Positions 22,710-58,827 of a stretch of 64,000 nt of DNA are shown here, in pieces; within the stretch, counting starts at the first letter, position 1; each line of letters begins with the position of its first letter. The stretch comes from an uncultured archaeon (GTDB lineage: Archaea > Asgardarchaeota > Lokiarchaeia > Sigyniarchaeales > SOKP01). The translations under genes and the position numbers were made by a program. Location of the stretch: NCBI GenBank assembly GCA_964486045.1, contig CAZALK010000022.1, positions 1 to 64,000 of the forward strand. Direction: 5' to 3'. The notes below the pieces were generated by a model that saw only the letters and a program-made list of their open reading frames with translations, was not told where the DNA came from and made no database searches.

Positions 22710-25120
22710 TTAAGTTCTACACATTCTTTTAAGTAAAGTTGGATCCACTATTTCTTTCGGTTTCCAACCTCTTTCTTTGAGGTATTCCTGTATTTCAGTT
22801 TTCATGTTAATAGGAATGTCTGCTTCAAGGCGAATGAATTTATCTAAATCGTTTGGAAACTGAACTCCTTTATATTTCCGTTCTAAATCAACCCAGTGGG
22901 ATAGTTTTATCATACGGCCTTTTGAATTGTCGGCAGGACGTATCACGAGTTTTGCCACTAAGCAGATGGCTTGTTCAATACTTTCAGCAGGAGTTAAAAG
23001 ATGCTCTGGTCCGGGACCTACAATGTGACCTTCGGTTCCATCTCGGGCATTGTAGACTTTCCATGTACTTTCATCATCCGCGCGACTAAGATACATACGA
23101 CGATACTCGGCACCATGTGGACCAATTACTGCTGGGATACCTAATCCGTTAGCCATACTTGCTATACTAGCTGCCTTTTGAGAATATGCGCCCCAAGCCA
23201 CACCTACTGCACCAAGACGATTCAAAATATAGTCTGCGATTTCTTCAAAATTGCCTCGTAGTGGTCTTCTCGCAAATATATTAGCAACTTTAATTGCTGC
23301 ACCCGTTATCCACGCGTCGGCGACACAGCTTCCAACGTTAACCAAGCCTCCACGATCGAAATCACCTGGAAATCTTTCATACAGAGTTTTACCTTCATCG
23401 TCCTTTACTAGACCTATGTCCATAGCCGCGCAACCGGAGACGCAAACTATATAATTTCGGATTAAAAATTCTTCTGCCATAGTATAGAGTTCTCGAATAC
23501 TGTGTGCATAATTTGAACATCCAATCAATGCAATAATGCCAGGGATCTCCCCAAGTACGATAGGGGCACCTACATTTCGAATTTCTGTGTCTAGAATAGG
23601 TCCGCGTCCCGATCTACATTTGTATCTTTCAGTTTTAATGTATTCACTTGATGCATACATAATTAAGGTTAAAGGAGAGACGTCTTTCATACAATCAGCC
23701 TCACATCTTCCACACGCTAAACACTCATCAAAAAGACTCGAGAGTAGAGTAAAATCCCCATCTTTTGCCAGACCTACAGCTTCAACAAGGGGTAAATCGT
23801 TTGGACAGTTTCTCTGACAATTACCACAACCATTACATCTCATTGCCATCTCTATAGAACCTTTCTCATCAGGAACACCACTTTTAGCATTTCTAATCGG
23901 TTTAATTTTTACAGCTGTTTCGGCGGCAACGGCTCCTGCTTTTGTTGGATTTAAAATTAAAACTCCATCTAACCTTCCACTTACTAAATCATCTACGATT
24001 TCATCAACTGGATCACCAGTTCTATCAGGTAGTCCAGCCATAACTTTTTCGTTAGTAGTGATATAAGGAGCACCAACTTTCTTAGCCTCGTCGTAAGTTT
24101 GCAACACTACACACTGTTCATCGACCATCACAACGTCAGCTAAACCAGAACGAATATATGTTAATTGTCTTGAAAATGAACCAATGATTTTTGCTCCATC
24201 GTAATACCTCGTTAAATCGTGAGCAGTGCAGCATATAGCTCCTACATCAAGCTTCTCATCTAAACCTTTCTCTCGTATATAATCAACTAATTCTACACCG
24301 GGTGCAACATTATGTCCAATCATCAAAATTGTTGCCTTGTTTTCAGTATCCATGGTACCCATACCGAGTTCTACAATTGGAGTGTCTGGTTCACCAACAG
24401 GCATCCCATATGCTGCGATTTGAATTGCATCCGAAACTTCCATTCCTATCGCGTCACATAAACCAGCTAAAAAACTTTTAGCTTCATAATCTATATGCGA
24501 ACTTTCTTGTCCGGTGTGACCTGCTGCTAAGAGTTGCGTGATCTGGTAGTTTACTCAGCAAGCGCGAATATCTTGCCAAAGTGTACCCAGTCCATCGCAG
24601 TCTCCAGATCATCCAGACTTTCCGGCTTAATTCCAACGATCAAGCGTGTTAATGGCATCTCTACTGCAATATTATTTCCAAAATTCAATGGAACGTTACC
24701 GTATTTCTCTCGAAGCCAGTGTAGTAAATGGTCGCCGTGCGCGCTGTTTCGAACTAGATTTTTAAACAAAACCTAGTGACACGCAGCGCCTATACAACAA
24801 GCAATCTCTACTATACGTGCATTTTGCGTTTCCATATTGATACCACAAGCCCCTGTTCTACCCTTAGATAAATTGCATTTACCGTATGTGCAAAGACAAC
24901 ACATATCGCAAATCGGCATATATGTTGGTTTGTACCTATCCATGAGTGTGAAAAACCAGTTCCGCAGCGTTGGTATTCCTGGGCGAGGAGTTGGACCCAT
25001 TGGTTCCCATTCAGTCTCATCACCATAAGAAATCCTGCCAGTCGTTAGCTCAAAGCCTTTAATCGTACCCAGCGGTCCCTTGTACTCATCTATTTTTATT
25101 TTTGCGCCTGTCTTTTCCAT
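22710..25120 (-). CDS. cdhA: CO dehydrogenase/acetyl-CoA synthase complex alpha subunit, interrupted by two short introns; join(24778..25120,24581..24747,22710..24548), 782 aa
   Basis: Three ORF pieces are colinear parts of CdhA (CDMCCLCTYGKC..GACG; ACH|SAHGDHLL; HTGQE; GHN; CCTAHD; DEQC; two ferredoxin CxxCxxC motifs; GSC). Removing 30+32 nt gives one uninterrupted frame. Confidence 0.93.
24549..24580 (-). other. 32-nt putative BHB-type mRNA intron 2 of cdhA
   Basis: Insert tttggcaagatattcgcgcttgctgagtaaac contains a stop and shifts the frame. Stem UUGGCAAG/CUUGCUGA. Excision gives DWVH|YQITQLL. Confidence 0.75.
24748..24777 (-). other. 30-nt putative BHB-type mRNA intron 1 of cdhA
   Basis: Insert actaggttttgtttaaaaatctagttcgaa has an in-frame UAG. 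BHB fold GCGCUG-CGUG-[UCA]-stem...UUCG-[AAA]-CAGCGC. Excision gives GAACHSAHGDH. Confidence 0.85.
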
Positions 25121-25274
25121 ATTTTTAATTCACATTTATTTTGTTTTTTCTTTGTTCTTTTATTATAAATTTATAATTGAAATTTTAATTCTTATGTAGT
25201 ATAATTAATCCCTAAAAATAAAAGCTATTGATTATGGTTTAAAACGATTACTCGCGATTTGGTTATAGAGATTT

Positions 25275-25292
25275 AGTGTGAAAATTCACACT
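25275..25292. promoter_or_regulatory. perfect inverted repeat in the divergent intergenic region upstream of cdhA (candidate operator)
   Basis: AGTGTGAA-aa-TTCACACT. Confidence 0.4.
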
Positions 25293-25390
25293 GCTAATAA
25301 GTTATATTTAATTTTTTTAGTGGGAAGGATTTTTTAAGCAAAACTAAAACTCAAAATTTAAATGGGAGTATTAAATTATACATAAATTTT

Positions 25391-25951
25391 ATGATTGAAG
25401 AAATATTGATTAAATCCCTAAAAAATAAGGATCTTTTTCTAAATCAAAATAATTTTCTCAGGATCATCATTAAAAACATGTTCCGCCATGATATGTTCCC
25501 AACCTTCAGCATCAAGCCAAATTATGCTTTTGTATTTAAAAAAAAGGAAAACAATGATTTTGAATCAGGGCTTAAAAGAGTTAAAGGTTTTAAAAACATA
25601 AAAGAAATAATTTGTGATGATGAATGGCAATTAGGGGTTCCAACGGTATTACCATCAATGTTTCCGGGATCTAATATGTATGAAATCCTTCCACATGTTT
25701 ATTTAACAGATATAAATGGAAAAAGATTATTGGGTAGATTTACTTTAAAAGATGGTCAACTGGTTGATAATAAACGATTATGGTGGCAGAATAATGAAAT
25801 GCTAGAGAAAAATTTTCTTTTTCGAGATGATAACAAAAAATATGGAATCGAGACTTGTTTTTTTATTACTACCCGTTTCGGATACACCAACAGGATTATG
25901 CAATTTATTGTTCACTTTGAATCCTATGAATTAAAAATGGGATTAATTTGA
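25391..25951 (+). CDS. hypothetical protein
   Basis: 186-aa ORF, no recognised motif. Confidence 0.55.
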   Translation: MIEEILIKSLKNKDLFLNQNNFLRIIIKNMFRHDMFPTFSIKPNYAFVFKKKENNDFESGLKRVKGFKNIKEIICDDEWQLGVPTVLPSMFPGSNMYEILPHVYLTDINGKRLLGRFTLKDGQLVDNKRLWWQNNEMLEKNFLFRDDNKKYGIETCFFITTRFGYTNRIMQFIVHFESYELKMGLI

Positions 25952-26163
25952 TTTTGCTTATAAGATGTCTCAATTTTAAAGATACAAATCTAAATTCTTG
26001 AATACCTTATTGATGATTCCTTAAATGTTATCTTACAATAATTGATACTCCGAAATCTCATTCAATCCTATTATCATAAGAAACTTTTAACGATCTTTCG
26101 ATTACATAATCCTAAAACAAATCAGGAGTAAGTTATATATTCTCTTATGCTTATTTTATTGGG

Positions 26164-26397
26164 GTGTTAACGTATTTATATCTTGTATTTTATGCGATTT
26201 TCTTTCCAAACCTTTCAGAGGGAATACAGGATATACTTAGTCCATTTAGTAGTAAAATAATATCATTGTTTATATTAGTAAATGTTATTGCAATTTTTTG
26301 TGTTTTTGTTACATTCCTTATATATTTAAATATTCTAATAATTAAAGATATAAAAAAAAAAGTCTTTATTTATTTAAGAAATGAAGAAAAAAATTGA
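26164..26397 (+). CDS. small hypothetical membrane protein, possibly a gene fragment
   Basis: Hydrophobic 77-aa ORF with GTG start. Confidence 0.35.
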   Translation: MLTYLYLVFYAIFFPNLSEGIQDILSPFSSKIISLFILVNVIAIFCVFVTFLIYLNILIIKDIKKKVFIYLRNEEKN

Positions 26398-26528
26398 TTT
26401 AACTGTTTTTGTTGGTATTACGTTATTTCTATTTGGATTATTCTCTGCTTTATATGGAATTATCACCGTAATTATTAAGTTTTATCAGAAAGATAGAAAA
26501 ATAAACCAGAAATTCGTAAAATAAATTT

Positions 26529-27113
26529 TTATATTCTTTTTAACCTTGAATAGATACTAAATTGTAATCCATTCATTATTAATACAGAGATACCAATAGT
26601 ATATAAGACAAAACCAGAAGAATAACCAGATTTAATATAAATTAAAATGGCTAAATAAAATAATAGTTCAAATTTTACATTGAAAATGAGAATTATTCCC
26701 GGGATAATAAACAAAATTTGAGTTACTTCAATCAGATAACGAATCTGTAGTTTTTGTTTTATAGAAATCTTAAGAAAGAGGAGACATAATCCAATTAGAT
26801 AAGCGTAATACAAATAAATAATGAATATACCGTCTAAGTTAACAGCTTCTATAAAATAAAGGTATTGAAAATGATTTACACCGAATAAGTGGTAATACCA
26901 AGGAATAGAAAAAGAAATTACTAAAAGTATAATTCCAATTAATTCTGTGACAATAGAAAATAAAACATGCTTTTTGGGAATAAAAGACCTAAAATTCATT
27001 CCATTCTTCCAATTAGTTGTTCGATCAACCGGTTTAATAAATGTTATTAAACCAATAAGATCAAGTAATAACCAACCGAGGAAAAGATGTACTAGATCAA
27101 GTGTGTCACTCAT
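26529..27113 (-). CDS. hypothetical multi-pass membrane protein
   Basis: About 5 TM segments. Confidence 0.6.
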   Translation of the reverse strand: MSDTLDLVHLFLGWLLLDLIGLITFIKPVDRTTNWKNGMNFRSFIPKKHVLFSIVTELIGIILLVISFSIPWYYHLFGVNHFQYLYFIEAVNLDGIFIIYLYYAYLIGLCLLFLKISIKQKLQIRYLIEVTQILFIIPGIILIFNVKFELLFYLAILIYIKSGYSSGFVLYTIGISVLIMNGLQFSIYSRLKRI

Positions 27114-27394
27114 AATTATAAAATTTCCTAATTCTTATTTACAATTCTGTATAAAGATTAAGCAGATCTAATTTATAATAACTATGATCTACAAATTTTT
27201 TCAATAAAGAAAAGGAATTAAATGACCTTCAAAAAGTAGGACCAGAACGAATTCTAACATTGGAACAGCTTCCTAATAACGGGGGAGGGGGAACTGAAAT
27301 CGTATGATAAGCAAAAAGCAAATACGTTTCAAAATTCTACCTACTTCATTACTTTTACCTAATTCATTATCTTCAAGACTTTATTATCAAAAAG

Positions 27395-27811
27395 TTAAAG
27401 ATTAAAGTTAGCGATTATAGCTTCTGGAATTAAGATAGAGTATAAGATAATACTCTCTAGGATCATTTCTATAATGGTGATTATGAGAATAATGACTATG
27501 GATTCCTGCATTTTTTGTCTAAAAACAAGATTAAAAATCTTCACTCCAAGAAAGATGCTTATAAAAAACGATAAGATTACCAAAATAATCGAATAAATAA
27601 AATAAAGGCTAAATTCATTCAAAAAAGCCAGATCAAGATAAAAGGTTATAATTAATACAAAGATGAATATTAGAGTTCTCCAACCAAGAATAAAAAGGAG
27701 AGAGGTTCTAAATCGAGGGTTCCACCCTTTTTTTCTCTCATACCATCTGATAAGTATTATCCCTATTATTATGATAATAATATAACGCAAGAGTTCAGTG
27801 ATTATGTTCAT
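27395..27811 (-). CDS. hypothetical membrane protein
   Basis: About 4 TM segments. Confidence 0.6.
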   Translation of the reverse strand: MNIITELLRYIIIIIIGIILIRWYERKKGWNPRFRTSLLFILGWRTLIFIFVLIITFYLDLAFLNEFSLYFIYSIILVILSFFISIFLGVKIFNLVFRQKMQESIVIILIITIIEMILESIILYSILIPEAIIANFNL

Positions 27812-27858
27812 TTTATTCTTACCTTTTCTCTTCCATCAAAACCGGATGATGGTTCCTA

Positions 27859-29349
27859 TTAATCTACTTTTTCTATTTTTTGTGATTTAGAGTCCTTAAT
27901 TGAAGGAAGTGTTTTTATTATAGTATAAATATTAACAATAATCGCTAGGAATATAAAAATGATAATAAAGGGAAAGCTAAATAGTGTATATGATTCAAAT
28001 AGGTCAATGTTCGAGTAAAATATTTGAGCACTCATATTCATGGATATTAGCTCAATAAGATAAAAAACAACTAATGCACTACTAGCAGAAAGTAAGATAA
28101 CTGAATTTATTTTGTCTAAACGAAATTTAAACCACTTAGTCTTAAATTCCCCAGAATTATTAATATTTTCTAGAGCCTTCTCAAAACGGTGGTTTTTTAA
28201 TATTTTTCCAATTGGATAATAGGAAAAAAGGATAATCGGAATAAAAAAAATATGAAATAAATTATTAAGAAATGAGAAGTAAAACAGATCTCCAAACATA
28301 AAAATATTAGTCAGATAAAAATGAGTAAAAAAAACAACACAAATAAGAGCTGAGGAGAGTAAGATTGTAGCTCTATGAGGGGTTAATTTTATCCGAAACC
28401 ATGAGAACTCATCAAAAGTTTTCCTATCTTTATGATTTCTTTCTTTAAGAAAAAAACTAGAAATCATAAGAACTAAAGATACACTAACATATAGCACTGT
28501 TCTAATAAAATCATTATTTTGATATGCATTAGGAGGAGTATATGATATCCCTAAAAGATTCGATACATCTTTATTGAATATAGCAAGGTGGGAAAAGATC
28601 CTTGCTGAGAAGATTATGAATACAAAAAATGAACCAATAAAAATAAGGAGAGCATAATTCTTTGTAACTTTTGTTGAAGGAGTTATAGGTTTACCTCTTC
28701 GAGTTATAAAGAGACTGTATAGACACACTATCAAAAATATTGATTGTATTATAAGAGGAACATTGTTTGATAATAATAAATGCCCTGTCCATTGATATGG
28801 ACCGATTTGAATCTCACTAATAGATGACAAGAGCCCAAACATGGAGAAAGGATATATAAAATGTTCCAAAAGGAGTTGTATCATGAAGATTAATCCTGCG
28901 AAGGATACACAGAAAATAAATAAGGATTGACCGTGAGAAATTTTTAACCCAAACCAATTTACAACTCTCTTTTGTGAAATAATTTTCCGTTTAGGTCTAT
29001 TTTCACTTGTTCTATTTTTTAGAATTCTTCTAAAACCATAGAGACTCAAGGAAATAAATATGATATTGACAACTATTCGTATAATGATTGGTATAGAATT
29101 ATAGAATAGATAGTCTTCATGATAGACTCCTGGATTTTCTAAATAACGTGGGACTGTAGAGAATATAAATTGAAATAAATTGAGGAAAATATCTCCAACT
29201 AAAAGGAATGAGACCATAAAGATACCCATAACAGATAAAACTAGGAACAAACTGACCTGCGAACGACTTAGTTCAAATTTAAACAATGTTAATTGAGAAC
29301 TGCTTATAATCGGTTTATTTTTTTCATCATCTTCTATATTTATCACCAT
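27859..29349 (-). CDS. hypothetical polytopic membrane protein with internal repeats
   Basis: Recurrent (W/L)FxF/IKL motif before TM pairs (LFKFEL, WFGLKI, WFRIKL, WFKFRL). Confidence 0.65.
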   Translation of the reverse strand: MVINIEDDEKNKPIISSSQLTLFKFELSRSQVSLFLVLSVMGIFMVSFLLVGDIFLNLFQFIFSTVPRYLENPGVYHEDYLFYNSIPIIIRIVVNIIFISLSLYGFRRILKNRTSENRPKRKIISQKRVVNWFGLKISHGQSLFIFCVSFAGLIFMIQLLLEHFIYPFSMFGLLSSISEIQIGPYQWTGHLLLSNNVPLIIQSIFLIVCLYSLFITRRGKPITPSTKVTKNYALLIFIGSFFVFIIFSARIFSHLAIFNKDVSNLLGISYTPPNAYQNNDFIRTVLYVSVSLVLMISSFFLKERNHKDRKTFDEFSWFRIKLTPHRATILLSSALICVVFFTHFYLTNIFMFGDLFYFSFLNNLFHIFFIPIILFSYYPIGKILKNHRFEKALENINNSGEFKTKWFKFRLDKINSVILLSASSALVVFYLIELISMNMSAQIFYSNIDLFESYTLFSFPFIIIFIFLAIIVNIYTIIKTLPSIKDSKSQKIEKVD

Positions 29350-29362
29350 TTATTTTATAATC

Positions 29363-30679
29363 TTAACTTATCAACATATTTTTTCTAAATTGAGTAGAAA
29401 GGTTTCTTTGTTCTTTTTTATATTTGAGAAATAAAGATATTACACTGCTTAGTAGCATGATACCTATCATCAAAAATATGACAAAAAGGTTATATCCGGG
29501 GATAATTAACATAGGGGCAGTAATGATATCTCGATCAAATAAATAAATCCTGTGCCTCCCTCCTACTACAATATATTTACCATCTGAAGAAATTTCTAAA
29601 CCAGAATCATAATTTGCATTAGTATATCCATCCAATCTATACCTCCATATTGGTGTTGAACTAGATTTATTAAATAAATAAATCCAATAATTACGGGTTA
29701 GGGCAACTATATAATCCCCGTTAGATGAGATAGCAACTGAGGTAATTTCTGATTTTGTTGAATATGTCCATTTGGGTATTGAATTATTTCGATTAAATAA
29801 ATATACTTTTGTATCACGATAGTCACCACCAGCGACAATATAACTTCCATCTTGAGAAATTTTGATGGAACTTACGTGATCAGGTGCATTGTTGGTCCAT
29901 AATGGAATTGAGCTGTTTTTCCTAAAAACATACACTTTATCGCCCCCCGAAGCTATATAATTTCCGTCAGCGGATATGGATAGGGAAGTGCTCATATCTC
30001 CTGATAGAGTGAAGGTCCATTCAGGTGAATTGTTAGATGTATTAAAAAAATAGAGCTTTGCTGCATTATCAGTTGCCGCCATAAAACTTCCATTTGAGGA
30101 AATCGCAACTCGAATTGTTAATCCCGTTGTGGAATACCCCTTAATAGGAATGGATTCCGTAGCGTTAAAAAAAAAAGCTTTACGATGGTCACCACTTGCG
30201 GCAGCAATATAATCATCATTATCAGAAATCGCAATATCATAAACCCACCCGTTGGTAGAATAAGCCCATTCAGGTGTGGGGGTTGAATTATTAAACAAGT
30301 AAACGGTTCTTTCGACGTAACCTCCCCCTGCTACAATATAAGAACCATTTCCAGAAATTGCTAAAGAATAAAAACTATTTGAAATTGAATAATTCCATAA
30401 GGGAATCTTGGTTGTAGAGTTTGAATTATCAAATAAAAACAATGTTCCATTTGCCTTTATTGAAATATCATATACTAAATTCTCGCTTGTAGCGGTAATA
30501 TAGCTACCATCTGAAGAAATAGCAACCGCGGAAATGTATCGATTTCCTGATGAATATGACCATACCGGAGTTGTAGAAGGATTAGAATAAGTTAATGCAG
30601 AACCTTCAATAATAAGAAAAGGATTCCCAAATATAATAATGGTAAAAAATAAAATGAGAATAAGTCTTTTTGTATTCAT
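29363..30679 (-). CDS. secreted WD40/PQQ-like beta-propeller with C-terminal IPGY sorting signal
   Basis: Repeats PxWxY...VAISSDGSYI. C-terminus IPGYN, TM, basic tail. Confidence 0.85.
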   Translation of the reverse strand: MNTKRLILILFFTIIIFGNPFLIIEGSALTYSNPSTTPVWSYSSGNRYISAVAISSDGSYITATSENLVYDISIKANGTLFLFDNSNSTTKIPLWNYSISNSFYSLAISGNGSYIVAGGGYVERTVYLFNNSTPTPEWAYSTNGWVYDIAISDNDDYIAAASGDHRKAFFFNATESIPIKGYSTTGLTIRVAISSNGSFMAATDNAAKLYFFNTSNNSPEWTFTLSGDMSTSLSISADGNYIASGGDKVYVFRKNSSIPLWTNNAPDHVSSIKISQDGSYIVAGGDYRDTKVYLFNRNNSIPKWTYSTKSEITSVAISSNGDYIVALTRNYWIYLFNKSSSTPIWRYRLDGYTNANYDSGLEISSDGKYIVVGGRHRIYLFDRDIITAPMLIIPGYNLFVIFLMIGIMLLSSVISLFLKYKKEQRNLSTQFRKNMLIS

Positions 30680-30926
30680 CTTTAGTATTTAATTACCTAC
30701 CGTTATTAAATGTATTTTTAAGTGTTAAATTTCAGTTAAAACTTTGATAATCCTAAATAGTTTAGTTAGTTTATAAAGATTCAGCACTAAACCTTGTTAT
30801 GTAATACAAGAACTATGTAATATTAAACATAAATCATGTATAATCAAAATATATAGAATAAATCACAAAAATTCAGTATATCAATAGAAGATTTTAATAA
30901 TTTTTATTCCATGATTTATATTTAAG

Positions 30927-31388
30927 ATGAATTCAATTGATGATTTTATTGAGAAATATCGCTTAGATCGTTTTGACGAAGCCTTAGAGCTTAAAAGTCG
31001 TGATAAAATCAGTTTTTATAATGAATTAGAGGCTTTAATGACTACTATTTGCAGAATTTTTGATAAACTAACAACTGTGTTTTCTCTAAGAGGAGGGCAA
31101 GTATTAATGAGTTTAGCAAAGTTACAAGCTTCTGAGGAAATTATATCTAAGACTGATATAATGAAATGTTTAAATATAGATAGACACGAAAAATTAATCC
31201 ATGCTTTTGATTTTTTGTTAGAGCAAAACTATATTGAAATCAAGAAAAAAACAAGTAAGTTTCATATGGTTAAATTGAATGAAAAAGATAATCCCGATTT
31301 TGAGTTATTTCGGGAAATTATTCAAAAGTTTTGGACATCCCCAGAGGAAGAAAAAAATAAAACAAAAGTGTGGGGTGATAAAAAGTGA
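30927..31388 (+). CDS. putative winged-helix DNA-binding protein
   Basis: ISKTDIMKCLNI...LIHAFDFLLEQNYIEI wHTH-like pattern. Confidence 0.5.
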   Translation: MNSIDDFIEKYRLDRFDEALELKSRDKISFYNELEALMTTICRIFDKLTTVFSLRGGQVLMSLAKLQASEEIISKTDIMKCLNIDRHEKLIHAFDFLLEQNYIEIKKKTSKFHMVKLNEKDNPDFELFREIIQKFWTSPEEEKNKTKVWGDKK

Positions 31389-32245
31389 AAGATTTAAATG
31401 ACACACACGGCGAATTAAACCTTGAGAGCAATGATCTGGGTCCAAACTTTTTTGCGATTATCAAAACTGAATATTTAAAGAATCTACTTAAGGTATATCT
31501 TCTAATAATTACACTTATTGGTTTATATATGATATACCAATTATTTATGATACCTTATGAGCAAGGTTCTGGAAAATATTTATCTGATCAAATTGTTTTT
31601 TGGTTTCTTTTCTTAATCTTTTTATTCATCCACTTCTTCTTATTATCCTACAACAGGTTTTCTCCAACATTGGTTAATTTTCTTAAGGAAGAATTGCATC
31701 ACTTAGGTTTTGAATTGCGAAGAAAGTACAAAACAAGACTAAATTTTTATTTGTTTAATAGTTTCTCTCTTATCTTCTTTATTGTAATGAATATTGGGAT
31801 TTCATATTCTCTAGATTATGTGATTATTTCTCTCAATATTAGATTACTGCTAATCTATATTTTTTCAAGTATTAGTATCCCAATCCTATTAGGAGTATTA
31901 CATGATAAATTTATTATCAAATTAAAATCCCCTTACTTCGTGCAATTTGATCTACAATGTAAACTAATAAAGCGGAGAGAAGTGGAGTCACAAATGATAA
32001 GAATTTTTATGATTTCCGATAAATTATGTTTAAAATCAAATGATTCAGGATTCAAAATCCATAAAGAGATATCAGAAAAAAGATGGCTTCCCAGAAAGGG
32101 AAGATTTACTCGTTCAACATATAATATAAAAAAATATTTGTATTTCTATGAATACTCAACTCCAATTAATTTTAAAGAGCATTTCTTAAATATTGTATCA
32201 GCTTTGAGAGAATGGGATACATCAATAAAAACTCATAAAAATTGA
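31385..32245 (+). CDS. hypothetical membrane protein
   Basis: 4 TM segments. Start overlaps the previous stop (GTGA). Confidence 0.6.
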   Translation: MKDLNDTHGELNLESNDLGPNFFAIIKTEYLKNLLKVYLLIITLIGLYMIYQLFMIPYEQGSGKYLSDQIVFWFLFLIFLFIHFFLLSYNRFSPTLVNFLKEELHHLGFELRRKYKTRLNFYLFNSFSLIFFIVMNIGISYSLDYVIISLNIRLLLIYIFSSISIPILLGVLHDKFIIKLKSPYFVQFDLQCKLIKRREVESQMIRIFMISDKLCLKSNDSGFKIHKEISEKRWLPRKGRFTRSTYNIKKYLYFYEYSTPINFKEHFLNIVSALREWDTSIKTHKN

Positions 32246-48899: not shown

Positions 48900-49310
48900 A
48901 TGACGTACTGTACTAATTGTGGAAGTGAAATCGAAGATTCCTGGAATGCTTGCCCTAACTGTGGAAAGGTTTTAAGAGAAACAAAAGCCCCTCAACAACA
49001 GGCAGCACCTCGGATTCAACCACCACCACCACAACCATATCAACGAAGTTATTCTTCGGGTGGGGGAAATATATATGGCACAGTTGCCTTAGTTTGCGGT
49101 CTAATTGGTTTGTTTGGTGTTGTTCTTTATTTCGGTATTGTCTTAGGAATAGTTGCAATAGCATTGGGAGGCATAGGATTAAGTAGAGATAATAATAATG
49201 CTATGGCGATTATAGGTTTAATTTTAGGAATAATAGACTTTGTATGCTGTATAGCTTTCTATTTCCTGATCTTTTCATTGTTATCATTGTTTTCGTTTGT
49301 ATTTTGGTAA
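48900..49310 (+). CDS. zinc-ribbon/DUF4190-like membrane protein
   Basis: CTNCG..CPNCG, Pro/Gln linker, two TM segments. Confidence 0.75.
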   Translation: MTYCTNCGSEIEDSWNACPNCGKVLRETKAPQQQAAPRIQPPPPQPYQRSYSSGGGNIYGTVALVCGLIGLFGVVLYFGIVLGIVAIALGGIGLSRDNNNAMAIIGLILGIIDFVCCIAFYFLIFSLLSLFSFVFW

Positions 49311-49393
49311 CAAATCTGGTACCAATATTAACCAAATTGTCTTTGACATTTTCGGTAGAATGTTAAAACTATTAAAATTGGTTTGAACTAAAA

Positions 49394-50083: not shown

Positions 50084-50188
50084 ATTATTTTTATACTCTG
50101 TTGAGACTATATTGGTCTAGATGAATATTTTACGAAAATGTAGTTGAAAGAAACTAAAATTATAATTGATGTCTATTATTTCATAATT

Positions 50189-51784
50189 ATGACTCTTGGA
50201 TATCTCGGATTAATCCTCCATGGGCATATTCCTTGGTGTAAAAAGTCGGGAGTTTGGCCAGCAGGAGAAGAATGGCTCATGGAAGCAATGAATGAGACAT
50301 ATATTCCAATGTTAAATGTTTTAAGGGAATTTAAAGAAAGAGGAGTAAAAACAGCACTAACAATAAGTATTACTCCTATTTTGGCTGAACAGTTAGCAGA
50401 TGATTATATGAAACAAAGATTTTCAGAATACATGGAAAATTTAATTTCAAGGGCAAAAAAAGATATTACAAGATTCGAAAACCATCTTGAAAGGAAAATT
50501 ATAGCAGAATTTCATTTAAGAAATTTTGAGTATGTCTTAGAATCGTTTTATCATAATTACTATAGAGACATATTAGGAAGTTTCAAATGGTTACAAGATG
50601 AAGAAATTATTGAAATAATAACATGTGGGGCCACACACGGATTTTTACCACTTTTTGAGAGCGATTCTGGAATTTTTTCTCAAATTCAAATGGCGGTAGA
50701 CACTCATAAAAAATATTTCAACAAAGAACCAAAAGGAATTTGGCTTCCGGAATGCGCTTATCGCCCAAAAGACTACAGAGATGATAAATTTCGAGAAAGT
50801 ATTGAGTACTGGTTGAATAATTCTAACCTTGAATATTTTTTTGTTGATTCTCATGGAATTATTGACGCCGAGATTATTCAACACAGAAATGAAATTGGTT
50901 TGAATACAAATTTTGGTTATAAATTACAGAATGAAATTTCGGTTTTTGGGAGAAATATAACTATTAGTAAACAAGTTTGGGATGCTAAAATTGGTTACCC
51001 AGGGAATGAGTTTTACAGAGAATTTCATAATAAAGATCACGAGTCTGGGTTACATTATAATCGAATTACAAACAAATTACTACCACAGAATGAGAAAGAA
51101 TTATATAACATAAAAAATGCAGATAAAACAGTTGATTCTGATGCTTATCATTTTATCACACTAGTATCAAATGAGCTAAAGCAGGAATCTGAATCGTTTG
51201 TAGACAAGGGAATTGTAGTTTGCGCCTTTGATTTCGAATTGTTTGGGCATTGGTGGTTAGAGGGTGTAGATTGGTTAAAAAGAATTATAGAAATTATATC
51301 TACCGATAGTACTGTTGAATTAATCTCGATATCTGATTATATCTCTCAATATAAGGATAATTTCTCAATAATTAAAATGAGAGAAAGTAGTTGGGGAGAA
51401 GGAGGTGATTTTAGGGTATGGAAAAACCCTGATCATGATTGGTTATGGTCATATATAAATGGCTCAATAAAGGATTTTGAAGAAGTTTTAGAAAATAATC
51501 CAATTCCTGATGAGTTACAATTAAGGATCCTGAAACAAACCGCTAGAGAATTATTGTTAATGGAGGGAAGTGATTGGCCTTTCCTTATGTATACAGAACA
51601 AGCGAAAGAGTACGCTAATAAAAGGTTTCATCATCATCATCAAAGGTTTCTTAAATTATTATGGGCAGCGAAAAATTTCAATGACGAAAATAGAATTAAC
51701 AGAGGAGAATTGAACGAGATTGAGTCCATTGATTCCTGCTTTCAAGATATAGATATCAACTATTTTAGAAAAAGAAAGTTGTAA
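50189..51784 (+). CDS. GH57 1,4-alpha-glucan branching enzyme (DUF1957 type), intron-less paralogue
   Basis: LHGHIPW, ETYIP, ATHG, WLPECAY, FDFELFGHWW, SSWG, ARELLLMEGSDW. ATG at 50189. Confidence 0.9.
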   Translation: MTLGYLGLILHGHIPWCKKSGVWPAGEEWLMEAMNETYIPMLNVLREFKERGVKTALTISITPILAEQLADDYMKQRFSEYMENLISRAKKDITRFENHLERKIIAEFHLRNFEYVLESFYHNYYRDILGSFKWLQDEEIIEIITCGATHGFLPLFESDSGIFSQIQMAVDTHKKYFNKEPKGIWLPECAYRPKDYRDDKFRESIEYWLNNSNLEYFFVDSHGIIDAEIIQHRNEIGLNTNFGYKLQNEISVFGRNITISKQVWDAKIGYPGNEFYREFHNKDHESGLHYNRITNKLLPQNEKELYNIKNADKTVDSDAYHFITLVSNELKQESESFVDKGIVVCAFDFELFGHWWLEGVDWLKRIIEIISTDSTVELISISDYISQYKDNFSIIKMRESSWGEGGDFRVWKNPDHDWLWSYINGSIKDFEEVLENNPIPDELQLRILKQTARELLLMEGSDWPFLMYTEQAKEYANKRFHHHHQRFLKLLWAAKNFNDENRINRGELNEIESIDSCFQDIDINYFRKRKL

Positions 51785-51787
51785 TTT

Positions 51788-52309
51788 TTATTTAATTACC
51801 AGAACATCACAAGGAGCGTCTTTCATCACACTTTCCGCTACAGAACCTAAAAATATTTGACTTAGCTTAGAATGTATCCCTTTAATACCTACAACTACTA
51901 GATCGAATTTCTCACTTTCTACAACTCTTTGAATATAATCTTCAGGATAGTCTTCTGTAACCAAACTAGTTTCGGTAGGTATTTGTAATTCTTCAAAAAT
52001 GGCTTTTTTGTCAGCTAATATACTCACGCCTATGTCTTCAATCTCAGATTCGCTTAATCGTTTTATGTTAGGAATATCTTCTTCCTTTATTAACACAGGA
52101 CGTGCGGTGGATGTCCCATCAAAGTAAGCATCAGAAGCATATGGTACAGTCCATCCATGAGAAGGAGGAGAAACTTTCTCTAGCATATGCTTAACAGAAT
52201 GGAATATATGAATCTGACTACCCCATTTCTTATAGAATCCAATTATAATTGCAGAACCGCGATTTAGATGTTCAGATCCGTCTGTAGCTAGTAAAATTTT
52301 CTTATACAT
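51788..52309 (-). CDS. universal stress protein
   Basis: KKILLATDGS...DLVVVG..G......LGSVAE...APCDVLVIK. Confidence 0.9.
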   Translation of the reverse strand: MYKKILLATDGSEHLNRGSAIIIGFYKKWGSQIHIFHSVKHMLEKVSPPSHGWTVPYASDAYFDGTSTARPVLIKEEDIPNIKRLSESEIEDIGVSILADKKAIFEELQIPTETSLVTEDYPEDYIQRVVESEKFDLVVVGIKGIHSKLSQIFLGSVAESVMKDAPCDVLVIK

Positions 52310-52516
52310 ATCAATACTCTCAATGTAATTTTAGTTTTTAAATTTATTTTCTTTAATTTATAATTATATATGCAGATTTTGATATTTTGGGTATTATAGT
52401 TAATCTAAAAAGTCAGTTTTTAATAATAAATTATTTATAATTATTTATAATCACCTTTATGTATTATTCTTGGTTTTTAATACAATAATTATTGGAATTA
52501 TTGAGATGATAAACCT

Positions 52517-52912
52517 ATTTTTGACAAAATTTTAATTGGAATAGATGAGTCCGAAGAATCTTTGAGAGCCGCAAAACGAGTCATAGAAATTCAAAAGGAT
52601 TCAGAAGGTGAAATAGTTGCGTTTCACTCAATTTTGCATCGTAATTCAGATTCTGACATTGATGATCATAAGAAACAGGTTTTTGATGAGATTAACAAAT
52701 TATTTGAGGAAGCTAATCTTTTAATTGAAACCAGACTAATTCTTGATCAAAAGCCAGAAGATTACATCATAGAAATTGTGGAAAAAGAGAAGATTAATCT
52801 AGTAGTTCTTGGTTATAGTGGAAAACACGGAATTTTAAAGCGTAGATTATTAGGTTCTATCCCAACAGAAGTAATGAATAACGTTTTATGTGATGTGTTA
52901 ATTGTAAAATAA
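52517..52912 (+). CDS. universal stress protein (start unresolved)
   Basis: The frame extends upstream of the TTG at 52562 as (I)FDKILIGIDESEES. C-terminal LGSIP...CDVLIVK. Confidence 0.8.
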   Translation: MFDKILIGIDESEESLRAAKRVIEIQKDSEGEIVAFHSILHRNSDSDIDDHKKQVFDEINKLFEEANLLIETRLILDQKPEDYIIEIVEKEKINLVVLGYSGKHGILKRRLLGSIPTEVMNNVLCDVLIVK

Positions 52913-53175
52913 CTCATTTTGATTTCTAAACATATAAGAATTCCATATTATTTATTAAATTTCTAGAAAAAAGAATAAGCTTATTATCTGTAAGAAATTT
53001 ATCACTTTCTTCAAGAACTCCAAGAAGGTGCCACCCCGCATCATAGTGTGGCATATATATCAAGATAATTTTGATTTAGAGGCACATCTTATTTTTTTTA
53101 TACACAAAATGCATTTTGCTTTTATTAAAATTTAATAGCAATTTCATTTTTGTTTGAAGTAAAAAAGTTTGTTAT

Positions 53176-54447
53176 ATGATTTTGAATTTAAAAAAAAATT
53201 TTGTAAATCCAGTAACATTCGTAATTTTATTTTTTCTACTCACAGTTGTAGTGGGAGATTCCCGGACAAACACTATAGATTCATCAAAGTCTCCTTTGGG
53301 TATTAAAGACGCTGGATTTGGTTCCAACGCGAATTGGCATACTGATTCTTCCCAGATAACTCCTGAGGTGGATGTCACATATACTTACGAATATAAAACA
53401 ACAATAGATCCTACCCATGAGGCGGATCTCCTTCAAACAATGACTCTCAACTACAAAGATGGGACAGGATCATCGGTCGGTTTTCAAAATGTTTTACAAT
53501 TTTTTGCAGGGGGCTTAGACGTCACAAATGAACTAGTCTTAGATTGGGATAAATTACGATACATAGAACCTACTCTACTTACTACAACCACTATCAATAA
53601 TGAAAATGTACAGTCCAGAAGTAAATTTAACGGATTTGATATCGTAAAAGGAAGTTCCCAAGATATAAAGATGGCTCAATCATACTCAGATGCTAATGAT
53701 TGGAATTATGTGATAAATGATACAATCTACTTAGGCAAAATCGAATTTGCTAATCGAACTACTACGATAGGAGATGTGATCTTGAGTACGCGTAACTATA
53801 CGCATAATAGTTTAGAATTGAAAGAAAGTATAGCAGATTTTAATGTCACTATCGATGCTACTATTGGAAATAGTACAACTATATATAATATTACAGCTAT
53901 ACTTAACGTACATGTTGTACACAATATAACTTATACAGATTATAAATACGGTGTTGTAATAGACTGGGATGCTTATAAAGATTTTCCAACAAATATTCCC
54001 ATCAATACAGGAGATCAATTCTTCTTAGTTGCACAAGATCGGCTGAATGTTGGTCCAGGAACTTGGCAAATTGGGACTTTTGATATCAATAATGCAAATG
54101 ATACGGCGATTTTTAATTATCAAGGAACAGAATATGCAAGGCAATTTCTCACAACAGAATATTCAATCAATGGAACTACACCACTTCAAGATACTAACAG
54201 AATCTATTATGCACTGAGTGCTCATTCCGAGTTATATGGTGATTTCTCAAGAGTTTTTGTTTGCTTCGATGGCTTTAAGTACAACCAAAGCACTGGCTTA
54301 ACTTTTGATCCCCGAGTACTGCTACCCATCAGTGCCGTAGTGTCTGATTCTTCAATTATAGGTATTCCTGTATTTGTGTTAATAAGTGTAGGAGCAGTTG
54401 TTGTAGTCATAATTATAAAAAGGTTCAGAAGAAACTTGCCAGATTAA
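53176..54447 (+). CDS. secreted, C-terminally anchored surface glycoprotein
   Basis: Signal peptide, many N-x-S/T sequons, FDP, TM and RFRR tail. Confidence 0.7.
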   Translation: MILNLKKNFVNPVTFVILFFLLTVVVGDSRTNTIDSSKSPLGIKDAGFGSNANWHTDSSQITPEVDVTYTYEYKTTIDPTHEADLLQTMTLNYKDGTGSSVGFQNVLQFFAGGLDVTNELVLDWDKLRYIEPTLLTTTTINNENVQSRSKFNGFDIVKGSSQDIKMAQSYSDANDWNYVINDTIYLGKIEFANRTTTIGDVILSTRNYTHNSLELKESIADFNVTIDATIGNSTTIYNITAILNVHVVHNITYTDYKYGVVIDWDAYKDFPTNIPINTGDQFFLVAQDRLNVGPGTWQIGTFDINNANDTAIFNYQGTEYARQFLTTEYSINGTTPLQDTNRIYYALSAHSELYGDFSRVFVCFDGFKYNQSTGLTFDPRVLLPISAVVSDSSIIGIPVFVLISVGAVVVVIIIKRFRRNLPD

Positions 54448-54520
54448 ATCTAAATTTAATAATCTTAATTCTTTTTTATTTATTTGTCGTAATGATATGC
54501 AATTGATATTTTGGAATTGA

Positions 54521-54775
54521 TTAGAATAAATTAGGGTATAACTCTTCAATTTCTTCTTTAATTTTATCAAGTAAATTGAGCAACACTATATTATCATATT
54601 CATGTCTATTTTCTAAAAAATAGTCCAGAATTCTATTCGCAGTGTCTACATCCATTTTAGTATACTTTTCTAGTCTAGCTTGAAATAATATTTCAAATTC
54701 TTCCTTCAACCATTCCAATTCTATAATTAAATTTTCTTCTAAAATTTCATGATACTTTAGGCTAACGTTCATCAA
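54521..54775 (-). CDS. small acidic helical hypothetical protein
   Basis: 84-aa ORF preceded by GAGGT. Confidence 0.6.
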   Translation of the reverse strand: MMNVSLKYHEILEENLIIELEWLKEEFEILFQARLEKYTKMDVDTANRILDYFLENRHEYDNIVLLNLLDKIKEEIEELYPNLF

Positions 54776-55074
54776 AATACCTCAACTCTTAAATGTCTAA
54801 ATTAGGTTCCTTTTACCTTAAGATAAAGGTATTGAGATAACTATTTATAATTTTTATAGACCAATTTTTAAATGTTCTTCTAAAAGTCTTGAAATATTTT
54901 TTTATGCTTAAAATAAGAAGGTAAAGAAATTACGACTAAATAATTGTTATTTAGGATAATTATAATTAAATAAAAAGAGTAAGTAAGGAATTTGAATCTG
55001 AAGGAATAACATTTTAATTATATAGATTCTAAATAAATTTGTAAACCTTATAACAAAATCTAAAGGGAGAAAAG

Positions 55075-55866
55075 ATGATATATCAAATCTTTGGTGAATT
55101 TGACATTATTTTAATTGGTATATTGATTTTTGTTGGTGTTGTTTTTTTTATCCTACTCATAACACTTTTAAGAGGATTTAAAACGGTAAAAGAATATAAT
55201 CGTTTGATAATTTTTCGCTTCGGAAGATACAAAAGAACTATTGGTCCAGGAATAGTATATGTGCTACCATTGATTGAAACGTCGGTTGTTACTGATTTAC
55301 GTATAAAAACTCTAGATATTGCTAAACAGGATGTTATAACTAAAGATAATATTCCGGTGACTGTTGATACAAGCGTATTTTATAAAGTAGTAAATCCAGA
55401 ATTTGCTGTAACTAAAATTGAAAATCTCATGAGAGCAGTATTCAACTATGTTCAAGGAGCTTTAAGAGATGTTATTGGTAGTATGGCTTTGGACACTATC
55501 TTAACACAGAGAGAAAAAATTTCACAAGAAATCCGAAAGGTTGTTGATGAAGAAACTCGAGAATGGGGCATACAAATTAGTCAAATTAAAATACAACAAA
55601 TCGAATTACCAGAATCTATGAAACGCGCAATGGCAGTAGAGGCTGAAAAAGAACGTGAGAAGCGTGCTACAATTATTGCATCAGAAGGTGAACTTGAATC
55701 AGCTAAAAATTTGTCAAAAGCAGCAGAAATCCTGGCTAATAACCCAACCGCAATCCAATTAAGAACGTTACAGACAATTTTAGATATTTCTCATGAACCT
55801 TCTCAAAAAATAGTAATTTTTATGCCAACTGAAATCGGGAGTTTACTTAAAAAATTTATAGATTAA
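55075..55866 (+). CDS. SPFH/band 7 (stomatin-like) protein
   Basis: FRFGR..GPG, QDVITKDN, LRDVIG, AEKEREKRATII.SEGE, QLRTLQT. Confidence 0.92.
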   Translation: MIYQIFGEFDIILIGILIFVGVVFFILLITLLRGFKTVKEYNRLIIFRFGRYKRTIGPGIVYVLPLIETSVVTDLRIKTLDIAKQDVITKDNIPVTVDTSVFYKVVNPEFAVTKIENLMRAVFNYVQGALRDVIGSMALDTILTQREKISQEIRKVVDEETREWGIQISQIKIQQIELPESMKRAMAVEAEKEREKRATIIASEGELESAKNLSKAAEILANNPTAIQLRTLQTILDISHEPSQKIVIFMPTEIGSLLKKFID

Positions 55867-56063
55867 TTAAATATCTAATTTTTTTTTATTAGTCATGAGA
55901 ATAAAGAATTTTCTCTAACCTTATTTTTTAGCAAAAAGTTTAAGGTCTAAAGCTTCAAATATGTGATTAGGGAATTTTGAATTGGAATGTATCCTACTTC
56001 ATTAAAATAGAGTTAAAAAAAGAAATTAGAAAAAAAAGAGATTTAGTTATTAAAAAATATACG

Positions 56064-56711
56064 CTATTGAGCTACATACTCAATCGTTAATTGATTATAA
56101 TGAGGACTAAGATGAGGACTAAAATAATCATCCCAATCAGTATATCCATTAATTTCTATATAATTTGTGCCATTACTATATACAAACGCAGATGAATCAA
56201 CATGATGGTAATATTCGTTAAATGTGGCTCCTGTCTGTAAACGATCAAGAACAAATTCGGTTGCACCGTCTTTCAAAATACTGGTCTTATAAAGGAAACT
56301 GGCATTAATGTTCTTCAATAACACAGAAAGGTGAATTCGATACCAACCAGATTTTAATAATGTAATACGAGTATTGTTGTTTGAAACTGCAATATAGTTA
56401 GTATTATTTAAACTGTTACCCCTATATTCGTAAAGCCAATTATTAGTTAAATTGTAAGGTTCATAATCTTGATTGTCGTAAAGTGCATTCCATTTACCTA
56501 CAACAGTAGTCCTTGTAAAATTATTAAACTCGTCCGTCAAAAAATTTAACTCGTCTGTCAAATTATTCAAATCATCAATCAAGTCATCAAGCTCTGCTTT
56601 AAGATCTGAATTGCTAGTATTTTGCCCGTTCCACACTATAAATGTAAACCCTATTGACCCAGCAGCAAGGATCAGTCCAATTATCCCTAAAACAGCACCA
56701 CTACGTCCCAT
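56064..56711 (-). CDS. membrane-anchored coiled-coil protein with C-terminal beta-sandwich (C1q/TNF-like) domain
   Basis: TM segment, heptad repeats LNNLTDE/LNFLTDE/FNNFT, ITLLKSGWYRIHL. Confidence 0.55.
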   Translation of the reverse strand: MGRSGAVLGIIGLILAAGSIGFTFIVWNGQNTSNSDLKAELDDLIDDLNNLTDELNFLTDEFNNFTRTTVVGKWNALYDNQDYEPYNLTNNWLYEYRGNSLNNTNYIAVSNNNTRITLLKSGWYRIHLSVLLKNINASFLYKTSILKDGATEFVLDRLQTGATFNEYYHHVDSSAFVYSNGTNYIEINGYTDWDDYFSPHLSPHYNQLTIEYVAQ

Positions 56712-57081
56712 TATCTATCACTTTCATTTTTTTATTAATTTAGTTCCAATCAAATTAAAGAACAATTCTTTTTTCAAATAATAAACTTTATTACTATTAA
56801 GTAAAAATCATTTTAGTTCGAATCTCAGAAATTAAATATTTTAGTAATAGGATGCTATAAGCTGAAGAACGGCTCTTTCATCATAAAGTAATCTTAGTAG
56901 AGTGTCCTAACTGTTTATGAGAATGACATAAAAAGAGTAGTATTTTTTAAGGTTGATTCTCTTCTAAATTGTTCAGTATAAGAAATACATTCAGTTCAAT
57001 ATTTTTTTATCCTGAAAAATCTCTTGGAAAACAAAAAAAAGGCGTGAGATATTGATTGAAGATTAAAGTCATTTTCTGATT

Positions 57082-58827
57082 TTACTTTTTTGCAAACGGT
57101 TCAAGATCTATAGCTTCAAATATATCATCATTAGCTTCTATAGAACCAAGGAAGTGCCATTCACCTTCGTCGACATTCTGACCATTCGCATAAGTATTCG
57201 CCATGTTATAAAGTCTATTGAAATTCTCATAATGTAATGCAACCCGATTTTCAGCGTAATCTCTTGCTGACCAAGTTGTTATTAAAAATTGCCAATCACT
57301 GCTCTCTAATAATAACAGTTCTCGAGCCATCTGCTTAAGAATTTTAATGAGGTTAGGATTATTAGAATTTTTATACTTAGCTATAATATCTTCGCTTTTA
57401 GATTCACATTCATAAATTCGCTCCCACGTCCAGGTCGTCCACTCATTAAGCCAGACCCAGTGAGAGCTTGCTTGACCCCAAGAGCCTTCAATCACACTTA
57501 CTACTTTATTGGGTGGGTTTTCTTCGAGATAAAGTCTAGTATTAGTTAATTCTATCTCAGGGTCATCTTCCATCCATCGTAAAACGCGTGCAATCCACCA
57601 ATTTCCTTCAAACCACCAGTGTCCAAAGAGTTCTGCATCATAGGGTGCCACAATTATACCATTTTTCCCAAACTTATTCTTATATTCTCTTAAAATGTCT
57701 TTAGCTAAATTAATATAGTGACTGGCATTTTCATCCAATTTTCCAGGAATATCATCTGGCCAATATAGCATCTTCTTTCCCAAATCAAGCTTAGGGCTGG
57801 TAACACGCCAATATTTGAGTCCTCCAGGATAATGCTTCTTGTGGAAATCTAAGTACTCTGCACAACCCGGATATCCATGTTCCCCGCTCCATACTACGAT
57901 TCCGGTCTTGTCATCTCTCGTGAAAAAACCGACTGGGGCTCCTGTTGATGGATCTGTAGAGATGAGATACGGTTCATACTGGGATTTTTCAAAAGAGGTT
58001 GGAATTTCTTCGTATTGAGATTCAAATTGCTTCCAGAGTTCAGCCAATAATGGAAACCTAGCAGCATAAACTCCTTGTGATTTTCCTCCCAATAATAAAG
58101 CTGTATCAATGAAGAAATACTTTAAACCGTTTTTAGCAAGAAAATATTCGATCCCAGGACGTTCGTATTCTTCGTCTGTTATTGGATTTTTCCACTTGTA
58201 TCCTGGACGGTAAGCACATTCTGGTAACCATGCACCAGTAGGAGCCCTTCCAAAATGCCGTTTATAACTATCAACAGCAGTTTTGAATTGAGCATCTATT
58301 GAAGTTTCTTTAGAAAGAAGCGGAGTATATCCGTGTGTTGCACCACATGTTATTATATCTAAAAGACCCTTATCTTGCAAATCCTTAAACGCACCTACAA
58401 TATCCCTATTGTATCTACGGATAAAGTTATCCTTCACCCTCGAATAGAACTCTTGCCACCATTTAGTTAACTTGATTCTTCCATCCTCGTATTTATTTTC
58501 AGTAAAATCCTCAAAATCAAATACTGCTGCATTATATTTTTCATCTAGATATCCAATAAACGCATCAACAAATCGAGGGTTTCGCAACATTTCACAAAGG
58601 ACTGGTGTAAGGCCAACAGTGAGTTTTGGATGATATCCATCATCAATTAGTTTATATAACTCCATCAATAGAGGAATATAGGTTTCAGCAGCGGCCTCAT
58701 TTATCCAATCCACTTTAGATAATATGATAAATTCATATTATTTTCCATGAGGCCAAACACCATGACCTATAACCCAAGGTAAATGGGCGTGCAAGACTAG
58801 ATTAAATGAACCTAAAATTTCAGTCAT
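57082..58827 (-). CDS. GH57 1,4-alpha-glucan branching enzyme interrupted by a 30-nt intron; join(58743..58827,57082..58712), 571 aa
   Basis: Exon 1 MTEILGSFNLVLHAHLPWVIGHGVWPHG lies upstream of an in-frame TAA. The rest has ETYIP, ATHG, WLPECAY, YDAELFGHWW and ESSDW. Confidence 0.9.
58713..58742 (-). other. 30-nt putative BHB-type mRNA intron of the GH57 gene
   Basis: Insert aataatatgaatttatcatattatctaaag has an in-frame UAA and a perfect 9-bp stem AUAAUAUGA/UCAUAUUAU. Excision gives WPHGMDW. Confidence 0.8.

Follow-up and report, generated by a model that had tools for sequence, protein, structure and literature searches.

Candidate tRNA-type introns of about 30 nucleotides in protein-coding genes of a Lokiarchaeal genome

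Splicing of archaeal mRNA has so far been a curiosity known from one coding gene (cbf5) and one leader, and the cbf5 intron of the Crenarchaeota was reportedly described by Watanabe in 2002. Here we examine a 64,000-nt stretch of DNA (positions 1 to 64,000 of contig CAZALK010000022.1, hereafter the window) from an uncultured Asgard archaeon, in which cdhA and a glucan branching enzyme-like gene of the GH57 family are interrupted by short inserts that we interpret as candidate introns of the bulge-helix-bulge (BHB) type. The BHB intron of cbf5 pre-mRNA is found in Crenarchaeota (Desulfurococcales, Sulfolobales), lies in the coding sequence and is cut by the tRNA splicing endonuclease (PMC2738675). 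According to a paper of 2020, this is the only archaeal mRNA BHB intron besides that in the leader of Haloferax volvanii HVO_1309, a 5' untranslated intron which is a substrate of the endonuclease EndA in vivo and in vitro and whose removal matters for expression (PMC7714728).

The Lokiarchaeal inserts resemble the cbf5 intron in that they are BHB introns in coding sequence, show lineage-specific gain and loss, and are overlooked by annotation pipelines. Unlike cbf5, with its one gene and one site, the genome under study holds at least 18 to 19 such introns, with as many as two in one gene and some six sites in a gene family, and the Lokiarchaeal introns are of a near-uniform 30 nt and sit in core essential genes of Asgard hosts. 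They share with HVO_1309 the role, here predicted, of an mRNA substrate of archaeal EndA, but the HVO_1309 intron is a single case and, unlike those of the window, lies in a leader where no reading frame depends on it. Asgard archaea and Thermoproteales have non-canonical introns in tRNAs that are similar in motif, in presumed enzymes and in their repeated gains at many positions (PMC11291895; bioRxiv 10.64898/2026.10.13.758758; PMC5829648), whereas the introns described here have mRNA hosts, take the exon half of their motif from coding sequence and are much more uniform in length. A more distant parallel is offered by HAC1/XBP1, in which an endonuclease (Ire1) and a tRNA-type ligase (tRNA ligase/RtcB) likewise act on hairpin-defined cuts and change the frame; that system, however, relies on a different endonuclease and another motif and works as a stress switch, regulated and limited to one mRNA, whereas here many housekeeping genes are involved with no sign of regulation. 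Our full-text literature search returned nothing on BHB introns within the coding sequences of Asgard archaea. The mechanism is of a known kind, and it is the density, uniform size, essential hosts, turnover and lineage of these introns that are new.

The genome under study (G000) is a metagenome-assembled genome (MAG) of 5.18 Mb with 31% GC in 45 contigs, of which the window represents contig C22, and the window CdhA clusters with Promethearchaeota (Lokiarchaeia) MAGs. The initial annotation had proposed three inserts of 30, 32 and 30 nt, two in cdhA and one in the GH57 gene, each with an in-frame stop and a hairpin, all near the 5' end and all of one geometry with three of four central pairs; these features are present in the sequence at the positions it gave, and all three inserts fall within the first quarter of their genes (Table 1). 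The common layout consists of a 4-nt exon segment, a 3-nt bulge, the intron hairpin, a 4-nt partner and a second 3-nt bulge, and excision after the second nucleotide of each bulge regains both the frame and a conserved motif in all three cases, again as had been claimed, and yields a CdhA of 782 aa and a GH57 protein of 571 aa. At random genomic sites, a stem of at least 8 bp together with at least three central pairs occurs in 1.6% of cases, even allowing 14 nt of slack each way, and a chance origin of the window inserts is excluded.

After in silico excision CdhA contains no stop except the terminal one and is identical to the uninterrupted ortholog of G006, a complete genome of the same genus (CP070831.1), at 694 of 781 positions (89%) with one gap column. 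A single Prismane/CODH domain spans the pieces of cdhA (Pfam), with profile positions 2-44 running up to the very last codons of exon 1 and 176-483 lying in exon 3. The colinearity of the GH57 gene is based on a DNA alignment with 22 insert-free relatives and on an intron-free paralog within the window, which serves as an internal control: from the conserved Trp onward, the spliced N-terminus aligns with the paralog at 50189 without gaps. Ligation of the GH57 exons would itself generate the Met codon. It had been anticipated that standard annotation would call such genes split or pseudogenes, and indeed cdhA appears as three open reading frame (ORF) pieces in the unspliced sequence, while the mechanical ORF list begins GH57 only at the GTG at 58713, a shortened ORF in which the domain starts at profile position 20 (Pfam).

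Comparison with relatives indicates that the inserts come and go in otherwise colinear genes. In the 5' region of cdhA, 18 of 20 genomes of the same genus are without both inserts to the base (619 vs. 681 nt), and 22 of 25 relatives have an uninterrupted GH57 locus (DNA alignment). Intron 1 was seen in G000 alone among about 100 Lokiarchaeal cdhA loci. Intron 2 is common to G000 and its closest relative, G022 (cdhA loci L006/L139), with an A-to-G change in the exon that preserves the central pair as G-U. Inserts of like kind are present in the independently assembled genomes G022, G014, G017, G002 and G016, as well as in contigs of other metagenomes. When about 84 Lokiarchaeal loci were searched with the uninterrupted protein (tblastn), cdhA inserts were located near codons 52, 57, 78, 85, 124 and 186. 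All cdhA intron sites seen are confined to the first quarter of the gene, namely its first 190 codons out of about 789. The gene carrying these inserts is intact in other respects, with no further lesion in 782 codons and a ratio of nonsynonymous to synonymous substitution rates (dN/dS) of 0.04-0.09 for the third exon against three orthologs; as these include G022, which shares intron 2, the single-copy cdhA is under purifying selection with an intron present.

The pairing partners also change in step, as the initial annotation had suggested should be looked for in related genomes, although the cases are few and the relatives are not independent. In GH57, the exon segment AUGG and intron segment CUAA of G000 correspond to ACGG and CCGA in G014 (locus L036), i.e., U-A is replaced by C-G and G-U by G-C, and the stem in G017 (locus L042) has changes in both arms. 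Codon 78 of cdhA is occupied by unrelated introns of 30 and 34 nt in different species; exon GCCG is paired there with intron CGGU, CGGA or CGAC, and exon UGCC with intron GGUA, and the stem arms covary as well (UAUACAC/GUGUAUG vs. UAUGCAC/GUGCAUA; among L004, L008 and L006). There are also signs of movement. In G014 and G017 the 30-nt GH57 intron lies 12 nt upstream of the G000 site, between GHG and VW rather than between PHG and MDW. The hairpins of G000 and G014 are identical over all 23 nt while the exons are only about 72% identical; that one hairpin should occupy sites 12 nt from each other points to sliding or re-insertion of the intron more than to plain vertical descent. No close copy of the GH57 hairpin was found elsewhere in G000 or in G006. 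Reverse splicing may be the way in which introns of this type spread, its targets being exon sites able to supply a 4-nt pairing partner. It can also be observed that the two GH57 intron sites each follow a CAYGGA repeat.

A genome-wide intron class was likewise put forward in the initial annotation. Structure alone is a poor guide in this AT-rich genome, where a 6-7 bp hairpin that includes GU pairs turns up roughly once per 10 nt and the junction of two neighboring genes can look like a pair of joinable ORFs; the strictest structure-only filter gave 13 matches in the 30-nt class vs. about 3 in frame-shifted controls. Because such scans were too noisy, we chose a homology-anchored census in which the ORFs of G000 and G006 were compared both ways by tblastn and insert borders were set by protein similarity alone, blind to structure. 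Of 3.34 Mb of G006, 2.8 Mb were used, and 2,988 of 7,607 ORFs of at least 80 aa (shadow ORFs included) had a match there. Inserts bearing stops or frameshifts peak sharply at 30 nt (22 raw matches at 30, 3 at 31 and 2 at 32), while frame-keeping, open inserts are dispersed over 15-105 nt. After de-duplication, at least 17 credible inserts remain in G000, including the two of cdhA, so that at least 15 genes are broken besides the two of the window, and the addition of GH57, whose G006 ortholog lies outside the compared 2.8 Mb, gives the minimum of 18 to 19 cited above; G006 itself has only about five. Introns common to both genomes are missed by this design, and the extrapolated total, a rough figure, is about 40 or more.

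The fold was then read at borders that similarity had fixed. All 16 homology-fixed introns have a central helix of four (11/16) or three (5/16) pairs out of four, whereas in controls shifted by 6-12 nt these values were reached in 3/96 and 9/96 cases, respectively. The mean relative position of the intron in the gene is 0.34, a modest 5' bias. Taken with the comparative data, the census strongly supports the core of the initial annotation, namely that tRNA-type BHB introns interrupt protein-coding genes. Its further suggestion that they gate carbon metabolism is without support, because the hosts span all functional classes, among them RpoA', EF-2, uS10, small GTPases and AIR-synthase-like genes (Table 1). 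A typical intron of G000 and G006 has a 9-bp stem and a 5-nt loop, and among 21 introns of the two genomes, A is the first nucleotide of the 3' bulge in 20 and of the 5' bulge in 15. Hairpin loops in the same set are often RNUUA pentaloops. The preference for A and the loop type may be an extra recognition feature or may simply reflect base composition.

EF-2 illustrates the breadth of the phenomenon. When the 287 N-terminal residues of G006 EF-2 were searched against 150 genomes of the order, the match was 30 nt longer in at least 25 genomes, all of one family (f1; 16 of 53 in the genus), counts which are descriptive only since related genomes are not independent. These longer matches contain one to three stops, with a read-through frame of about 760 aa. 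EF-2 of G018 is longer by 60 nt, which would correspond to two inserts, and no insert of 30 nt was found in EF-2 of 20 genomes of the other three families of the order. It is possible, and we propose it tentatively, that a whole Lokiarchaeia family has dynamic, endonuclease-spliced introns of about 30 nt in its coding sequences, several tens per genome and including genes of RNA polymerase, EF-2 and ribosomal proteins.

Table 1. Positions of the interrupted genes, their introns and predicted folds in the window, followed by further intron hosts elsewhere in the genome (contig given before the colon)
Feature	Coordinates	Strand	Description
cdhA (CODH/ACS, carbon monoxide dehydrogenase/acetyl-CoA synthase, alpha subunit)	22710..25120	-	ATG at 25120, stop at 22710; single copy
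cdhA exons	25120-24778, 24747-24581, 24548-22710	-	predicted spliced product 782 aa
cdhA intron 1	24748..24777	-	30 nt, in-frame TAG; splits motif between AACH and SAHGDH
Intron 1 BHB fold	24741..24789	-	read from sequence
Intron 1 outer exon-exon helix	24789-24784 / 24746-24741	-	6 bp, GCGCUG/CAGCGC
Intron 1 central helix	24783-24780 / 24753-24750	-	CGUG/UUCG, 3 pairs + U-U
Intron 1 bulges	24779-24777 and 24749-24747	-	
Intron 1 hairpin	24776-24754	-	9 bp, 5-nt loop GUUUA
cdhA intron 2	24549..24580	-	32 nt, frameshift + TAA; splits between WVH and YQITQ
Intron 2 relaxed BHB fold	24543..24590	-	read from sequence
Intron 2 outer helix	24590-24587 / 24546-24543	-	4 bp, CUGG/CCAG, requires a 4-nt 3' bulge
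Intron 2 central helix	24586-24583 / 24554-24551	-	GUAC/GUAA, 3 pairs + G-A
Intron 2 5' bulge	24582-24580	-	
Intron 2 hairpin	24579-24555	-	8 bp, 9-nt loop
Intron 2 3' bulge	24550-24548	-	3 nt; with the outer helix formed, 4 nt, reaching 24547
GH57 glucan branching enzyme-like gene	57082..58827	-	ATG 58827; predicted spliced product 571 aa
GH57 exons	58827-58743 and 58712-57082	-	from DNA alignment, Pfam, paralog
GH57 intron	58713..58742	-	30 nt, in-frame TAA; splits between WPHG and MDW
GH57 intron BHB fold	58712..58748	-	read from sequence
GH57 central helix	58748-58745 / 58718-58715	-	AUGG/CUAA, 3 pairs + A-A
GH57 bulges	58744-58742 and 58714-58712	-	
GH57 hairpin	58741-58719	-	9 bp, 5-nt loop AUUUA
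Second GH57 paralog	50189-51775	+	34% identical to the interrupted GH57, intron-free
RpoA'			position C13:44101; insert splits between GHFGH and IELARP; homology census
EF-2	C13:91976-92866 region		position C13:92018; insert splits between AH and IDHGKT; homology census
uS10, fwdA-like, thymidine/AMP phosphorylase-like			homology census
Two AIR-synthase-like, MoxR-like ATPase, zinc-finger protein, several others			homology census
Three small GTPase paralogs	C17:96895, C1:29542, C1:354338		30-nt intron each

The enzymes that such introns would need are encoded in the genome. G000 has two paralogs of the tRNA_int_endo family (PF01974), on contigs C7 (36262-36867) and C10 (136871-137473), and one RtcB (557 bits; about C1:512216-513523). 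The C7 protein, whose nearest match is the catalytic subunit of the heterotetramer from Aeropyrum pernix (3P1Z chain B, E 1e-33), keeps the Tyr/His/Lys triad, with a loop lysine that aligns with A. pernix K44, and in the C10 paralog, the non-catalytic subunit, a Ser replaces the catalytic His. Asgard EndA is reported as an (alpha-beta)2-type enzyme with a broad-specificity L1 loop, and BHB motifs in a relaxed form are reportedly cut only by the (alpha-beta)2 and epsilon2 enzymes (PMC5829648). The predicted pair of G000 conforms to this (alpha-beta)2, L1-loop type, the cutter of relaxed motifs. The tRNA genes of G000 are heavily interrupted by non-canonical introns, so the tRNA-splicing machinery would be in constant use, and heavily interrupted tRNA genes have also been described in other Asgard lineages (PMC11291895; bioRxiv 10.64898/2026.10.13.758758). 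One example is tRNA-Lys(UUU) at C1:527548-527653, which has an insert of about 30 nt in the variable/T-arm region and is mislabeled by aragorn as a stop suppressor. Two aragorn calls of "tRNA-Pyl" are probably interrupted tRNAs as well.

We consider it highly probable, from the sequence evidence assembled here, that the inserts are BHB introns of pre-mRNA that are cut by EndA and joined by RtcB. In such a scheme, the four nucleotides of exon that directly precede the insert would pair with four near the 3' end of the intron, leaving a 3-nt bulge after each strand, and the motif would be closed on one side by the intron hairpin, as a rule a 9-bp stem and a 5-nt loop, and on the other by an exon-exon helix of variable strength. 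A heterotetrameric EndA, made up of the catalytic alpha subunit (C7) and the His-less beta subunit (C10), would cleave either bulge behind its second nucleotide, and the exons would be ligated by RtcB, by which the frame and the conserved motif would be regained; translation of an unspliced mRNA would end at a stop within or just after the intron. One and the same mechanism would act on introns throughout the genome, most of them 30 nt long, that would have been gained, lost and sometimes relocated within the Lokiarchaeal family.

Several observations weigh against this interpretation. Each window intron has one mismatch in the central helix (three of four pairs, the relaxed form), the outer helix of intron 2 requires a 4-nt 3' bulge, and that of the GH57 intron amounts to about 2 bp only. 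The inner hairpin, at 8-9 bp, is strong in all three. In RNAfold predictions the outer helix and the hairpin form, and an internal loop takes the place of the central helix; on energy alone the motif is therefore relaxed rather than textbook. Outside the window, the EF-2 inserts of other genomes are known by length and stops, not by fold, and the cdhA of G022 has a GC-rich, foreign-looking segment of 279 nt, some 100-380 nt into the gene, which replaces about 34 codons and may represent a chimeric assembly or a disrupted or damaged gene. The MAG itself has an estimated contamination of 7.8%. No RNA run containing the cdhA stretch was found, and neither spliced junctions nor circular introns were seen, for which reason splicing is something that we infer. 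As a separate observation, the 279-nt segment of G022 resembles the beginning of a bacterial protein of the HU/IHF type.

Ribosomal bypassing had been named as an alternative in the initial annotation; we consider it here as a programmed hop of the ribosome over the insert on an uncut mRNA, of the kind seen in phage T4 gene 60. There is a likeness in that the coding sequence of T4 gene 60 also has a short, stop-bearing hairpin gap which does not appear in the protein, the protein product would equal the spliced one, and cdhA intron 1 has its hairpin and stop directly after a possible take-off codon. Bypassing depends on matching codons, however, and these were tested and are generally lacking: take-off and landing codons are unequal in two of the three window inserts (CAC/AAC, both in cdhA), identical codons are possible in only 2/16 homology-fixed introns, and in 3/16 there is no codon-boundary solution because the intron splits a codon, so that no codon-to-codon hop could yield the conserved protein. 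A stop directly follows the take-off codon in one case only, and bypassing leaves unexplained the complementarity between exon and intron 3' end, its compensatory changes and the fixed 4-3-hairpin-4-3 geometry, making it a very improbable explanation. We would give a similarly slim chance to the view that the interrupted loci are pseudogenes, or scars of a small mobile DNA element, from which no full-length protein is expressed. In-frame stops and a frameshift are what standard annotation takes for broken genes, and the cdhA of G022 looks further disrupted, but the insert is the sole defect of each gene, and the selection on the single-copy cdhA described above is difficult to reconcile with decay. 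The same type of insert occurs in RpoA', EF-2 and uS10, in the case of EF-2 in at least 25 genomes with otherwise open frames, and there is no multi-copy element, the GH57 hairpin being unique in its genome. A reading of the interrupted genes as split proteins is likewise at odds with the evidence presented here.

The inserts could also be real introns that leave the RNA by a route other than EndA and RtcB, whether through a dedicated nuclease, by self-cleavage or with the help of another ligase. The imperfect central helices of the three window introns leave room for this, as does the fact that the link between enzyme and substrate is predicted, and the near-constant size of 30 nt and the preference for A at the first bulge position are, to our knowledge, not requirements of EndA. 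Nonetheless, EndA substrates have exactly this geometry and this cut register behind the second nucleotide of the bulge, and an EndA of the broad-specificity type and an RtcB are encoded. No Rfam family, ribozymes and introns included, matched in the window at the gathering threshold, and we know of no self-splicing intron as small as 30 nt, group I and II introns measuring hundreds of nucleotides. Removal by such another route is accordingly unlikely in our estimation. There remains next to no probability that the inserts are sequencing or assembly artefacts, or that they are translated by recoding of stops, e.g., of UAG as pyrrolysine. It is true that the genome is a MAG, that the first insert has TAG only and that aragorn labels two interrupted tRNAs "Pyl". 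However, homologous inserts in independently assembled genomes and in contigs of other metagenomes speak against an artefact, and recoding is contradicted by the lack of a PylS above the family cut-off (best 25.5 bits vs. 178 needed), by the TAA, TGA or frameshifts of other inserts and by invariant motifs that inserted residues would break, so that this explanation is already largely refuted. The likely source DNA run contains 99% of the sampled words, and one contig was aligned there, outside the inserts.

If the candidate BHB introns are spliced as we propose, an Asgard lineage cannot make its RNA polymerase, translation factors, ribosomal proteins or central carbon-fixation enzyme without the splicing of mRNA. 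This raises the question of how an organism with coupled transcription and translation avoids translating unspliced mRNA, and it bears on long-standing ideas on the origin of mRNA introns and of the need to separate splicing from translation. Obligatory mRNA splicing, if true, would imply some separation of transcription from translation already in the close archaeal relatives of eukaryotes. These genomes, in which dozens of young introns stand beside many sister alleles that have none, would also constitute a natural system for the study of intron gain, loss and sliding. On the practical side, gene calls that annotate such loci as split, truncated or pseudogenes distort both metabolic reconstructions and completeness estimates of Lokiarchaeia.

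Some further observations concern the placement of individual introns. Two of the three small GTPase introns lie within two codons of each other, directly before the P-loop (between FK and II and between FKIT and V), and the EF-2 intron is likewise situated directly before the P-loop. Two paralogous genes of G006 (337485 and 691068) have an identical 30-nt intron at an identical site, implying that the intron was copied along with the gene duplication. Lastly, contigs of runs X3 and X4 have a 34-nt, hairpin-forming insert in the Cys-Cys-Leu-Cys segment of cdhA (window 24893-24897), which is a further intron position in this gene.

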